A DNA stretch of 64,000 nt from a bacterium (GCA_021796335.1 JAJYHZ010000001.1:144360-208359); one strand, 5' to 3'; positions 25,287 through 29,633 are shown, counted from the stretch's first letter. Numbers and translations are program-made. The notes: generated by a model not told the origin, from the sequence alone.

Positions 25287-25359
25287 TCCCCGGTAGCTCA
25301 GCTGGTAGAGCGGCTCGCTGTTAACGAGATGGTCGTAGGTTCGAATCCTACCCGGGGAG
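25287..25359 (+). tRNA. tRNA-Asn (anticodon GTT)
   Basis: Cloverleaf folded by hand: 7-bp acceptor tccccgg/ccgggga, D-arm tagctcagctggtagagc, anticodon loop cuGUUaa, T-arm gtagg-ttcgaat-cctac. No encoded CCA. Confidence 0.85.
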
Positions 25360-26821
25360 CATCTATAAAACTTAGGTCAGTTTCAGAAAAATTCAGCCGC
25401 GCTTCGCGGAGCGAAGCGTAAGGTTTTGTGGGGGTAAATTCGACACGACGGTTTTTGAGAAAGAGGTTCGAGCCGAAAATTTTTCGGAGGGAGGTCTTTT
25501 TGGCATTTATGTCGTCATTGATTGCGACTTTCGCAAGCAATGACGCGTCTTTTATCCAGTTTCGCATCGGTTCGAGCCACGGGCACTGGCCTCTTTGCGA
25601 TCTCGCCAAAACCTCCTCCAGCGATTTCTTCTCCGACATGAGGGTTTTCTTGCGGGCAAGGTAGGTGTCGTGGTCGATTTCCTGATCCACAAAGAGGTCG
25701 GTGATCCGGTCTATCTTCTGGCGTACGTCGTCGATCTTCTCCTGTAAGCCCCTGACGAGGGTTGCCATCGTGCGGGAGGCGTCTTTTTCGTCTTCGTCCG
25801 CGAGCCGCGACATCTCTCTAGCCCACGCCTCCGGCATGACGTACTGCGTGAGCAGTTCGGAGAGGTCGGCGACAAGAGTTTCTTCCCTGATATATGGTTG
25901 CGAACAGCGGGTCGCCGCTTTTTTGGTACAGCGGTAATAGATATGGCCCTTCTGTTCTTCAGCGGTGATCATGCACCCACACTCGCCGCACCGGAGCAAG
26001 CCGCATAGCGGCTTCGGTTCTTTGTCCGTCTTCTGCGGGTGTCCCCGCCTCTCGATCACGGACTGCACTTTGTCGAACAATGCCTTGCTGATGAGCGGCG
26101 TATGCCTGCCCTCGTATATCTCCCCGCCATAGCGGAAATGACCGTAGTAAAAGGGGTTGGTGAGAATGAATTTTATTTGATCTTTATGGAGCGGATTGCC
26201 GTGCCAACTTTTCACGCCGTTATCAAAGAGAAATTTGGAAATGTCTTCGTAACGAGAGTTGCCTTTGGCGTACAGCTCGATGGCGGCGATAACCGCTTTG
26301 CTTTTCTTCCGGTCAATCACGATGGTCTTCGCTCGCACGTCGTTCAGATATCCCACGGGTGCGGTTCCGGGGAATATTCCCATCCGCGCCTTCTGCCGCA
26401 GCCCTCGGCTCGTATTGGAACTAAGATCGCGGATGAACTGGTTGGCCATGCCAAACTCGACGGACATGAGAAGCACGTTGTCCGGCGGATAGTAACTCTT
26501 TTCGGGCGTGGCGATACGCTGAATAGTTCCCTGTTGGAGCAACCAGCGCACAAGTCCGTCGTCCACCGGATTTCTCGCCAGTCGATCCAGCTTCCAGCAG
26601 ATGACGCCCTGTGCCTCGCCCCGTTGGATACGGTTCATCATATCGTTGAATATCGGGCGTCCGGGCACTTTTGCCGTCCGGCTCTCGGTAAACTCGGTCA
26701 AAATCTCCAACCCTTCGCTTTTTGCAAGCGAGCGTAGTTCCTGTAACTGGCCTTCAATGGAGAGAACCTGCTTGTCCTCGACATCGGTGGATTTTCGGGC
26801 GTAGAGGAAGTAATTGGCCAT
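25298..26821 (-). CDS. Large serine recombinase A (resolvase catalytic domain + recombinase domain + zinc ribbon + coiled coil)
   Basis: YARKSTDVEDKQVLSIEGQ catalytic Ser region, CGLLRCGECGC...YYRC zinc ribbon. Start chosen at MANYFLY (26821). The reading frame runs through IR1-L and antisense through the tRNA, so the true C-terminus is uncertain. GC-rich. Confidence 0.8.
   Translation of the reverse strand: MANYFLYARKSTDVEDKQVLSIEGQLQELRSLAKSEGLEILTEFTESRTAKVPGRPIFNDMMNRIQRGEAQGVICWKLDRLARNPVDDGLVRWLLQQGTIQRIATPEKSYYPPDNVLLMSVEFGMANQFIRDLSSNTSRGLRQKARMGIFPGTAPVGYLNDVRAKTIVIDRKKSKAVIAAIELYAKGNSRYEDISKFLFDNGVKSWHGNPLHKDQIKFILTNPFYYGHFRYGGEIYEGRHTPLISKALFDKVQSVIERRGHPQKTDKEPKPLCGLLRCGECGCMITAEEQKGHIYYRCTKKAATRCSQPYIREETLVADLSELLTQYVMPEAWAREMSRLADEDEKDASRTMATLVRGLQEKIDDVRQKIDRITDLFVDQEIDHDTYLARKKTLMSEKKSLEEVLARSQRGQCPWLEPMRNWIKDASLLAKVAINDDINAKKTSLRKIFGSNLFLKNRRVEFTPTKPYASLREARLNFSETDLSFIDAPRVGFEPTTISLTASRSTS
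25357..25472. repeat. IR1-L: left copy of a 116-bp perfect inverted repeat (starts within the last 3 nt of tRNA-Asn)
   Basis: Exact reverse complement of 29518-29633 by direct comparison; contains the GC hairpin cgcttcgcgg-agcgaagcg. Confidence 0.9.
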
Positions 26822-26880
26822 AGTATTATAATATATTGTAATACTACCATATAATATAACAAGCGATATACTTGTGAGTA

Positions 26881-27087
26881 ATGGGAGTTGAAGCCTCAAA
26901 ACTCGGCAAGAATTTAAAGCGTATCAGAATCGCAAAGGGCATAACACAAGGCGATATCGTCCGCAAACTCGGCGTGGGGCGAGGATTTATAAGCAACATC
27001 GAGAACGGTAAAGCTAACCCGACGCTCACAACAATTACAAAACTAGCAAAGGCGCTCGGTGTTCCTACGGATGAACTCTTAAAATAA
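26881..27087 (+). CDS. XRE-family helix-turn-helix transcriptional regulator
   Basis: LKRIRIAKGITQGDIVRKLGVGRGFISNIENGKANPTLTTITKLAKALGV is a classic HTH_XRE; divergent from recombinase A. Confidence 0.85.
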   Translation: MGVEASKLGKNLKRIRIAKGITQGDIVRKLGVGRGFISNIENGKANPTLTTITKLAKALGVPTDELLK

Positions 27088-28268: not shown

Positions 28269-29428
28269 AAACAATCTTAAAAACGGACATCACCGTAAAA
28301 GATATTTGCGAAGGGTTCGTCTATAACGAACTGGAAGGCAAAGGGCTATTCGGCTTGTCCGGCAAGCTCATCATTCAGCCACCGTACCAGCGTAATTTTA
28401 TCTATGCCGAAGCAGGAAAAGAAGCAGCGGTGATTGAATCGATACTAAAAGAATACCCAATAGGCTTGATCTATTTTAATAAAGTTGGTAAGGACAAGTT
28501 TGAAGTTTTGGATGGACAGCAGCGTATCACTAGCATTGGGCGATTTATCGCCGGTAAGTTTGCCATCCAAGACGAAAATGGCATGCCCCAAAATTTTAGC
28601 GGATTGGCACGAGAAAAACGAGCAAAAATTGAGAATACGAAGCTAACCATTTATGAATGTGAAGGCGAGGAAACCGACATCATGAATTGGTTTGAAACTA
28701 TCAATATTGTAGGTATTCCACTCAATGACCAAGAGAAAAGTAATGCCGTGTATTATGGCCCGTTTGTAACGCTTGCGAAGGAAGAGTTCAGTAATAATCA
28801 AAATTCCAATATTCAGAAATGGAACGCATATATAAAAGGTAGCGCTAATCGCCAAGATTTTTTGCATGCCGCACTAGATTGGGTGAGTAGGGGCAATATT
28901 CGAGAATACATGAGTAAGCATCGCAAAGACGAGAATATTAAAGAATTAAAAACCTATTTCAACAGCGTAATTGACTGGGTTTCCAATGTGTTTACCGATG
29001 TGGAAAACGAGATGCGCGGACTGGAGTGGGGCCGACTGTATGAGACATACCACAAAAAATCTTACGACCCTAAGAAGATATCGGCCGAAGTACACAAGCT
29101 CTATGCCGATTCGTATATCAAAAATCGCAAAGGTATTTTTGAGTATATCCTCGGCGGCTCTACTGATACCAAACTACTAGAAGTGCGAGTGTTTGACGAT
29201 GCGACCAAGAAAGCGACCTACGCAACACAGACAGCTTTGGCAGAAAAGAAACATATTTCAAACTGCCCACTATGCGCCGTTGGACGCGATGCCAACAAGG
29301 ACAGAATATGGAAACTGGACGAAATGGATGCTGACCATGTGGCGGCATGGAGCAAGGGCGGTAAAACATCGGCCAAGAATTGCCAGATGTTGTGCAAGAC
29401 TCACAACCGAGCAAAAGGAAATAGATAA
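28265..29428 (+). CDS. DUF262 (ParB/GmrS-like, DGQQR motif) protein with a C-terminal HNH nuclease domain
   Basis: QPPYQRNFIY and LDGQQRITSIGRF at the N-terminus; C-terminal CPLC...DHVAAWSKGG...CKTHNRAKGN HNH motif; overlaps the MTase stop (atga). Confidence 0.7.
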   Translation: MKTILKTDITVKDICEGFVYNELEGKGLFGLSGKLIIQPPYQRNFIYAEAGKEAAVIESILKEYPIGLIYFNKVGKDKFEVLDGQQRITSIGRFIAGKFAIQDENGMPQNFSGLAREKRAKIENTKLTIYECEGEETDIMNWFETINIVGIPLNDQEKSNAVYYGPFVTLAKEEFSNNQNSNIQKWNAYIKGSANRQDFLHAALDWVSRGNIREYMSKHRKDENIKELKTYFNSVIDWVSNVFTDVENEMRGLEWGRLYETYHKKSYDPKKISAEVHKLYADSYIKNRKGIFEYILGGSTDTKLLEVRVFDDATKKATYATQTALAEKKHISNCPLCAVGRDANKDRIWKLDEMDADHVAAWSKGGKTSAKNCQMLCKTHNRAKGNR

Positions 29429-29517
29429 AAGGGAGCTTCGCCGATCTCCAAGCGGCGAAGAAATAAATTGCCTATAACACGCGCATGGGTGGCGTGGGGC
29501 AAGTGTTATAACAAAAA

Positions 29518-29633
29518 TCTCGAACCTCTTTCTCAAAAACCGTCGTGTCGAATTTACCCCCACAAAACCTTACGCTTCGCTCCGCGAAGCGCGGCTGAAT
29601 TTTTCTGAAACTGACCTAAGTTTTATAGATGCT
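29518..29633. repeat. IR1-R: right copy of the 116-bp perfect inverted repeat
   Basis: Reverse complement of 25357-25472. Confidence 0.9.

Follow-up and report, generated by a model that had tools for sequence, protein, structure and literature searches.

Results

A probable 9.2-kb island at a tRNA-Asn gene

The window analysed here is a stretch of bacterial DNA of 64,000 nt (GCA_021796335.1, JAJYHZ010000001.1:144360-208359; positions are counted from its first base). Between positions 25357 and 34581 it contains what is very probably one integrated island of 9.2 kb, with a left attachment site (attL), an internal inverted attP and a right attachment site (attR). Taken as a whole, the region is best explained as an island that was inserted at tRNA-Asn by its own large serine recombinase (recombinase A) and that carries an internal inverted attP; we put the probability of this explanation at roughly 0.8. 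A first-pass annotation had described the left part as a self-contained cassette (cassette A) with perfect 116-bp terminal inverted repeats. However, the same core is found at three junctions in one polarity, which argues that the real unit is the whole island and cassette A is half of it. Cassettes A and B (segments A and B below) are two compartments of one element.

The inverted repeat of cassette A (IR1) was recovered with a repeat finder; its arms are 116 nt long, 100% complementary and separated by 4046 nt, the right arm lying one base from where it had first been placed. A perfect match of 116 nt cannot occur randomly in 64 kb, so IR1 is not a chance finding. A repeat search of the whole window revealed a second pair (IR2), of approximately 289 nt and 99% identity, with one extra T near 29861. 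IR2 abuts the right arm of IR1 with a 5-nt overlap, and each of the two repeats is present only once in the window. The left arm of IR1 begins in the last four bases of the tRNA-Asn gene, and thus overlaps it by 4 nt.

The features that define the island are as follows (Z is the DNA to the right of the island).

25233-25260, plus strand: promoter-like site of the tRNA-Asn gene, TTTACA-16-TATAAT, 11/12 consensus matches (a consensus match only)
25287-25360, plus strand: tRNA-Asn(GTT), Rfam tRNA match of 68 bits; its 3' end is the putative B-type half of attL
25357-25361: core GAGCA of junction 1 (putative attL, tRNA-Asn/a), the inferred crossover region, as the core common to the three junctions
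25357-25472: left arm of IR1 (IR1-L), arm a (P' arm and beyond), from repeat and open reading frame (ORF) analysis
29519-29634: right arm of IR1 (IR1-R), arm a', the non-coding copy, with a hairpin copy at 29572-29592 facing inward on the minus strand
29630-29634: core TGCTC (the reverse complement of GAGCA) of junction 2, the putative internal inverted attP (b/a)
29630-29918: left arm of IR2 (IR2-L), arm b', comprising a P arm with a T-loop mimic, CGTTCGAC, and a conserved distal module of approximately 245 nt
34294-34581: right arm of IR2 (IR2-R), arm b, with the putative attR core GAGCA at 34577-34581 (junction 3, b/Z)

Junction 1 reads ccggg GAGCA tctataaaac, junction 2 (reverse complement) gtggagat GAGCA tctataaaac, and junction 3 gtggagat GAGCA aagtaggacg. 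Arm a is the right side common to junctions 1 and 2, and arm b the left side common to junctions 2 and 3; the 5-nt core GAGCA is common to all three, in a single polarity. At junction 2 the core carries a local dyad, AGATG-AG-CATCT. Comparison of the junctions places the proposed crossover not inside IR1 but at its outer edge, in the GAGCA cores at 25357-25361 and 29630-29634. The G + C content across the region from 25 to 35 kb is 0.41-0.51, versus 0.36-0.40 leftward and 0.21-0.35 rightward.

Relatives of the island in CPR bacteria

Relatives of recombinase A number in the thousands in metagenome-assembled genomes (MAGs) of Patescibacteria, the candidate phyla radiation (CPR). A census of approximately 166 loci from CPR bacteria was compiled from 80 genome loci, 80 metagenome loci and a few contigs found via proteins (a few are the same contig fetched twice), and was scanned with blastn and ARAGORN. 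In about 85 of these loci an antisense tRNA gene lies at the 3' end of the recombinase gene, 13 tRNA identities being represented. The last 115-220 nt of the recombinase ORF, up to the tRNA boundary, are repeated in inverted orientation upstream in about 105 loci, at 80-100% identity. Both abutting repeat pairs were found within ±10-kb flanks in 13 loci (L014, L035, L041, L042, L045, L060, L064, L078, L079, L080, L115, L120 and L132) as well as in the window. In these loci arm b is followed by native DNA, in the form of terminator hairpins or of the tRNA gene that comes next in an array.

Between the repeats, many loci hold nothing but the recombinase gene (about 1.7 kb) and others hold 2-9 kb of cargo. 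No cargo or replication gene is conserved: only the recombinase is common to the loci, and the cargo is otherwise unrelated. Neither was a conserved small accessory or directionality-factor gene found in the minimal elements, in which segment A consists of the recombinase only. Arm b and the recombinase family are absent from IMG/VR, which was consulted for a viral origin.

Inverted repeats of this kind could be produced by a mis-join, a foldback or a chimera of strains during assembly. Some related contigs are clear foldbacks, and many contigs break within the repeats: about 45 end within the 3' end of the recombinase gene, and many start 50-140 nt ahead of the upstream repeat copy. Assemblers behave in this way at repeats, which accounts for the breaks. 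Perfect inverted repeats at contig ends were seen in L162 (1-1550 and 3102-4651) and L002 (1-126 and 14631-14756); these contig-scale repeats are probably foldback artefacts seeded by the natural repeats, and L162, a candidate for an excised circle, was discarded because its 1550-nt perfect arms mark it as a foldback. However, the same plan recurs with different repeat sequences in over 100 independent assemblies, which come from many studies and were made with many assemblers; it is therefore neither an accident specific to the window nor an assembly artefact. The plan is also present on contigs labelled complete MAG chromosomes (L045 and, less clearly, L007), and the non-coding copy of arm a carries a conserved insertion (see below) that an artefact would not produce. 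An artefactual origin of the repeats is scarcely credible.

In L120, a metagenome contig, three P arms (defined below) were observed, direct at 807-949, inverted at 3886-4057 and direct at 11173-11252, around the recombinase gene and a 7-kb segment; a sense tRNA-Thr gene lies 47 nt beyond the third. This layout suggests that such elements occur as multi-module or tandem arrays.

Geometry of the attachment sites

In the 50 nt outside the upstream repeat copy the loci share a conserved arrangement of AAAATAGGTTCGAGC, 8-10 nt, GTATAAT and the core, which we call the P arm. A profile built from this arm recovers it again, inverted, at the distal end of segment B in loci that have both repeat pairs, and the arm contains a mimic of the tRNA T-loop. 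The distance from the motif GTTC[GAT]A to the repeat boundary was measured. In the tRNA arm the motif lies 19 nt from the core in 51 of 64 loci, and in the P arm 23 nt from it in 39 of 51 loci; within single loci it is shifted by +4 nt, the P arm being the farther one, in 45 of 47. The corresponding distances in the window are 18 nt (tRNA arm) and 22 nt (P arm).

According to the cryo-electron microscopy study of the SPbeta integrase, the outer DNA-binding domain (DBD2) is positioned 4 bp nearer to the centre in attB half-sites than in those of attP. For most large serine integrases the predicted shift is 5 bp, and the study describes this position of DBD2 as the critical functional difference between attB and attP (PMC11722253). 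The +4 shift matches this published geometry, and on this basis the tRNA side would be a B-type and arm b a P-type half-site. With these half-site types, junction 1 corresponds to attL, junction 2 to attP and junction 3 to attR. As junction 2 would be a full attP, IR1 can be understood as the P' arm present twice (in attL and in the internal attP) and IR2 as the P arm present twice (in the internal attP and in attR). Both features expected of large serine integrase sites, a short shared core (4-5 nt) and a shifted outer motif, were thus found. In the P arm a TATAAT-like box lies 3-9 nt from the core; no properly spaced -35 box was found with it.

These sites bear directly on the possibility that cassette A is an autonomous mobile unit, akin to an insertion sequence or transposon, that ends in the 116-bp inverted repeats and is moved by the serine recombinase it encodes. 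The recombinase gene does lie within the repeats, the repeats of many relatives hold that gene alone, as in an insertion sequence, and the cargo between them varies by locus. However, in nearly every locus the upstream arm is bordered on its outer side by the conserved P arm, and so is IR1-R in the window, where target DNA would be expected if the cassette were self-contained and ended at IR1. No target-site duplication exists at IR1, the flanks being different (ccggg and atctc). The core, which in many loci is CACC, is not a palindrome and has one polarity at the three junctions, and the outer edge of the repeat is an attachment-site core with attP/attB geometry. In addition, no copy of the segment was seen outside the combination of a tRNA end and a P arm; relatives always lie beside either a tRNA 3' end or a P arm. 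We therefore regard an autonomous cassette as very improbable. A model in which A and B are two separate repeat-bounded circles in series was also considered and rejected: it requires a palindromic crossover, a property that the common core CACC lacks; in L080 a 2-nt crossover fits in no position; and core polarity is identical at the three junctions.

Recombinase A has a tail set by the junction

25298-26821, minus strand: large serine recombinase A (P0001), 507 aa from the ATG at 26821, according to homologue starts and Pfam
26822-26880: divergent intergenic region between the recombinase A gene and the controller gene of the cargo

The mechanical ORF of recombinase A is longer (533 aa, 25298-26899 on the minus strand, with a TTG start at 26899). 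The protein contains the Pfam domains Resolvase (PF00239, 3.9e-18), Recombinase (PF07508, 1.7e-12) and Zn_ribbon_recom (PF13408, 2.7e-10), and across 30 aligned sequences its catalytic YARKST motif does not vary. Large serine recombinases carry a coiled-coil motif within the zinc-ribbon domain; residues 345-440 of recombinase A look helical, as judged by eye only. The domain set and the length of 507 aa fit a large serine recombinase, and not a small invertase of the Hin/Gin type with a C-terminal helix-turn-helix. Promoter prediction across the intergenic region, which the first-pass annotation had taken for a divergent promoter region, gave promoter-like sites on the minus strand at 26878-26851 and 26862-26835 (consensus matches only).

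IR1-L encodes, on the minus strand, the last 38 conserved residues of recombinase A, and the tail beyond ...SFIDA is translated from antisense tRNA-Asn. The ORF thus reads through IR1-L and the antisense tRNA, as had been noted, and stops at 25298. Of the two explanations then offered for this, a genuine end inside the repeat or a stop altered by the insertion junction, the second was essentially right, as it is the junction that determines the C-terminal tail. Homologues have a common C-terminus up to ...FGSNL.L.N....YA.LR.AR.NFS..D.SFI.A and diverge thereafter. Most of their tails are translated antisense tRNA T-arms (PRVGFEPTT, AGLGFEPR and similar). The protein sets contain approximately 143 complete C-termini, of which about 115 run into a tRNA gene, about 16 (11%) into a P arm and about 12 elsewhere.

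Recombinases that are at least 90% identical to recombinase A (e.g. P0001, P0128 and P0133) read into the antisense strand of at least 3 different tRNA genes, which means either that nearly identical enzymes accept several targets or that hosts differ in their tRNA arms. In P0015, a homologue of 648 aa on a 518-kb contig, a Replic_Relax domain forms part of the recombinase ORF, whereas the window has Replic_Relax as a separate gene in segment B.

A covarying hairpin within the coding sequence

25399-25419, plus strand: GC hairpin with a 9-bp stem followed by AAGGTTTTGT, from a consensus scan and covariation; the minus strand encodes YASLREAR

A GC-rich hairpin had been reported in each IR1 arm. 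It is present at 25399-25419 and 29572-29592 and is the top terminator-like match of the region. The copy on the plus strand lies 39 nt past the tRNA-Asn gene and the other is on the minus strand (29592-29572), so that both face into segment A. In an alignment of 52 coding copies the consensus stem is 7 bp long and all 7 pairs covary. The hairpin cells are paired in 97% of cases versus 69.8% in column shuffles, none of 500 shuffles reaching 97%, and pairing drops to 23-57% when the partner is slid by 1-3 columns. The stem lies in codons for A-x-L-x-x-A, and consequently residue pairs are linked (S/E, T/V and A/A). Judged from its sequence and position, the hairpin of arm a may act as a replacement terminator of the tRNA gene, shielding segment A from read-through from both sides.

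Concerted evolution of the arms and possible flipped forms

Where the two copies of arm a are less than 96% identical, the differences are clustered rather than dispersed: two blocks are perfect matches, and a conserved insertion of 9-11 nt (TTTGAATTTT-like), together with a 1-nt deletion that breaks the frame, parts them in the non-coding copy. Both fall at the codons for ...IFG and SNL..., between the two, in ten loci (L001, L004, L005, L008, L011, L020, L025, L033, L036 and L039), in which the repeat covers the second block too, reading GGAGGGAGG...GGAGGGGAGG on the other strand. IR1 of the window consists of the core-proximal block only, with its inner edge at the GSNL codons. Where one element differs from another, both of its copies show the change. 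This marks the duplication as old and retained, with continuing homogenisation of the copies, which implies recombination between them.

Inversion between identical arms alters the linkage across a repeat and leaves every junction as it was. Two members of the 90%-identity cluster of recombinase A, P0124 and P0129, end with P-arm tails (...AHLHAPSRTFFTENP and ...AHLHGIARTDFAENP, respectively). Reading IR1-R of the window into IR2-L gives ...SFIDAHLHAPSRTFFIENP, almost exactly the P0124/P0129 tail that is expected after inversion or excision of segment A. In two loci (L083 and L084) 54 nt of sense tRNA-Asn at the start are followed by arm a, by cargo and by a recombinase gene that reads through a' into b'; in L166 a recombinase gene reading through a' into b' lies on a 90-kb contig, with an arm b that is 90% identical to that of the window. 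The arrangement of these three loci is suggestive of flipped isomers. As about 11% of the recombinase genes abut a P arm, flipped or excised forms probably exist. Two further loci (L141 and L120) have the order b.a-recombinase-a'.b', with attP on both sides of the recombinase gene; no circle closure was found in them.

Cargo of segment A

26881-27087, plus strand: XRE/HTH_3 controller (C) protein (Pfam; PADLOC Control_protein, 2.6e-11)
27090-28268, plus strand: type II adenine methyltransferase of the EcoRI_methylase family (Pfam 1.5e-128; PADLOC MTase_II, 1.2e-105)
28265-29428, plus strand: nuclease with GmrSD_N (DUF262) and HNH domains (Pfam; PADLOC REase_II PDLC03418, 2.4e-82, full-length match)

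The earlier description of IR1 as enclosing a serine recombinase gene and a co-oriented operon of three genes was borne out by Pfam and the ORF list. The gene contents are as described (XRE, methyltransferase and DUF262/HNH), but the PADLOC matches define the operon more exactly as a type II restriction-modification system with a controller. Two stop/start overlaps had been claimed; the ATGA at 28265-28268 is a real overlap (4 nt), whereas the XRE and methylase genes are separated by a gap of 2 nt. Judged from its predicted proteins, the cargo of segment A is a controller-methylase-nuclease type II restriction-modification system.

Segment B and a probable neighbouring island

29971-34208, minus strand: cargo of segment B, comprising a 202-aa ORF, an SDH-type ClpP-like protease (30570-31595), membrane-like ORFs and Replic_Relax (33342-34208)
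34487-36277, minus strand: large serine recombinase B, 596 aa (Pfam), of a neighbouring low-GC island

IR2 encloses 4.4 kb of minus-strand cargo (segment B), in which no PADLOC matches were obtained. The Replic_Relax gene in segment B was seen only in the window. The distal module of arm b is non-coding (29680-29925 and 34294-34531 in the window, 719-964 in L166, 2509-2747 in L168 and 3959-4181 in L083) and is 88-90% identical among these loci, while the recombinases beside it are as little as 48-63% identical to that of the window. It contains repeated TTTACCCCT...GGGTAGTC units and an 11-bp hairpin. An Rfam search of the repeats matched only the tRNA and gave none for this module.

The final 95 nt of the recombinase B gene lie within IR2-R, its last 31 codons being read from arm b, and the conserved end ...EVFASVRPTLL abuts junction 3. 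In other members of this family the sequence after ...EVFASVRPTLL reads into antisense tRNA or short tails. The nearest non-identical relatives are 48% identical; one of that identity, on contig L168, abuts the same arm b. An allele with an empty site was sought via homologues of recombinase B, but none exceeded 48% identity and the sole identical copy has the same tail.

To the left of the island the window contains dnaG, rpoD, alaS, a proteasome-like gene and the tRNA-Asn gene. To the right of recombinase B the genes are of low G + C content and mostly uncharacterised, and ordinary genes return near 53-54 kb. The low-GC stretch at 35000-53000 (0.21-0.35) holds trypsin-like, GNAT, DEAD and ResIII genes; headed by recombinase B, it is probably an older island at the same tRNA gene. 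The ResIII/helicase ORF in this stretch (44778-47381) contains five tandem units of approximately 200-220 nt at 46419-47363, with cores of 58 and 60 nt that are 62-84% identical; these units are a repeated C-terminal domain. Elsewhere in the window, an AT-rich intergenic motif, ACCGCTAATTACTAACAACTAAAAA..., lies upstream of several plus-strand genes (6086-6120, 9106-9145, 9348-9392, 9827-9871 and 22497-32) and may be a common promoter or regulatory element of the host.

Discussion

A model that accommodates the junctions would run as follows. Recombinase A would have inserted the 9.2-kb island at the 3' end of tRNA-Asn, using the attP copy that overlaps the 3' end of its own gene. The excised form would be a circle in which two inverted attP regions part A and B. 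Recombination between identical arms, whether RecA acts along their length or the recombinase acts at the cores, may homogenise the arms and now and then flip A or B, with the junctions unchanged. Such a flip would switch the read-through of the recombinase gene between antisense tRNA and P arm.

Several observations weigh against this model. Neither an excised circle nor an empty tRNA-Asn/Z site was recovered for the element of the window. About 20 loci whose upstream sequence exceeds 3 kb lack an IR2 partner within reach, and some members of the family lack IR1 (e.g. L002, L003 and L006). Z is not native DNA in the window but the 3' end of recombinase B, and the target of island A was therefore a hybrid site; in the most economical history, island B was inserted at tRNA-Asn first and island A subsequently between the tRNA gene and B. 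The flipped examples come from short-read assemblies, so that their linkage over a repeat of 115-116 nt is provisional. The terminator role of the hairpin derives from a consensus scan, and the U-rich tract begins a few bases past the stem. Canonical large serine integrases recombine attP with attB only, and not attP with attL or attR, and attP-attP synapses were reported to be unproductive (PMC11722253). Finally, the recombinase gene faces the tRNA gene in nearly all loci (approximately 9:1). This bias argues against free flipping and against equal use of both attP copies, as about half of the loci would otherwise be expected in each orientation. The enzyme may act preferentially on whichever site is closest, or transcription that reads through from the tRNA promoter may be selected against, but these are guesses.

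The two orientations also raise the possibility that IR1 and IR2 are the sites of a dedicated inversion switch that toggles, for example, expression of the recombinase or the restriction system, integration at the tRNA gene being secondary. The recombinase gene does lie in an invertible-looking segment, as hin does, the polarity of the sites suits inversion, both contexts of the recombinase 3' end occur in public data, and the arms are kept identical. However, the promoters seem all to be internal and the arms carry putative inward terminators, so that a flip would change little that is visible. The enzyme is a large serine integrase with half-sites of attP/attB type, a class that is not known to invert DNA between attP and attL or attR (PMC11722253). 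In addition to the strong orientation bias, identity along 116-360 nt suggests homologous gene conversion rather than exchange at a 2-nt core. A dedicated switch thus appears improbable, and integration of one island at the tRNA gene by recombinase A remains the preferred reading. Within it, inversion may be what the internal attP was selected for, although we hold this only tentatively and rather doubt it.

A still bolder proposal, which we consider unlikely at present, is that the internal inverted attP is functional and not a relic. The island family would then be a two-compartment, flip-capable mobile platform of CPR bacteria, with a circle that contains two inverted attP sites, controlling its recombinase and its mobility through convergent tRNA transcription and the hairpin, without a directionality factor. 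If true, this would represent a new form of serine integrase regulation; the smallest bacterial genomes would also have a new class of carrier for defence islands.

Large serine integrases are valued in genome engineering for their simple sites and one-way reaction; excision by them requires a directionality factor. The spare inverted attP, the ORF that extends over the crossover and the covarying hairpin in coding sequence point to an unstudied layer of control, and the family offers dozens of ready attP/attB pairs for different tRNA 3' ends. For CPR bacteria, with tiny genomes and few known mobile elements, it represents a common carrier of restriction-modification and other defence-like cargo, and it accounts for frequent contig breaks in CPR assemblies. 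In a literature search that left many subscription journals outside, we found no description of a retained internal inverted attP with long homogenised arms; nor, with the same incomplete coverage, of a recombinase ORF that spans the crossover or of a covarying hairpin in its coding sequence.

Comparison with known systems

In Salmonella the hin recombinase gene lies within an invertible segment. Hin, Gin, Cin and Pin are proteins of approximately 190 aa with a C-terminal helix-turn-helix, which act on 26-bp sites with an enhancer and Fis; inversion switches promoters or gene ends. The likeness to these switches is one of appearance only: a serine recombinase gene in or beside inverted sites, with crossover at the repeats. 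The enzyme and site features listed for them were not found here, the recombinase being 507 aa long and the repeats 116-289 nt.

The yeast 2-micron plasmid carries the FLP/FRT system within inverted repeats of 599 bp. FLP is a tyrosine recombinase that acts on two identical sites, and inversion drives amplification of the plasmid copy number. The circle proposed for the present island would resemble it in topology only, with two long inverted repeats that contain a recombinase target and two unique segments. In contrast to the plasmid, the recombinase is a serine integrase, the element is seen integrated, and no replication module is conserved among the loci.

Like the islands found by Islander and TIGER and like tycheposons, the present family inserts at tRNA 3' ends with the tRNA left intact, carries variable defence or adaptive cargo and forms tandem arrays at one tRNA gene (island A beside the recombinase B island). 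Those islands mostly use tyrosine integrases and are flanked by a direct repeat of the tRNA 3' end, whereas here a core of only 4-5 nt is shared and the conspicuous repeats are inverted and internal.

Parallels also exist with phiC31, Bxb1, A118, SPbeta SprA, TnpX and CcrAB, which have the same domain order of catalytic domain (YxRxST serine), recombinase domain and zinc ribbon. Large serine integrases likewise share a short core between their sites, with the outer motif 4 nt farther from the centre in attP (PMC11722253). The present elements differ from those of known large serine integrases in several respects, among them the lack of a conserved directionality-factor gene in the loci seen and the absence of the family from IMG/VR, noted above. 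In addition, the recombinase ORF spans the crossover, which makes its tail dependent on the junction; insertion is aimed at the extreme 3' end of tRNA genes of many kinds; and a complete inverted attP, with arms of 115-360 nt, is kept inside the integrated element.

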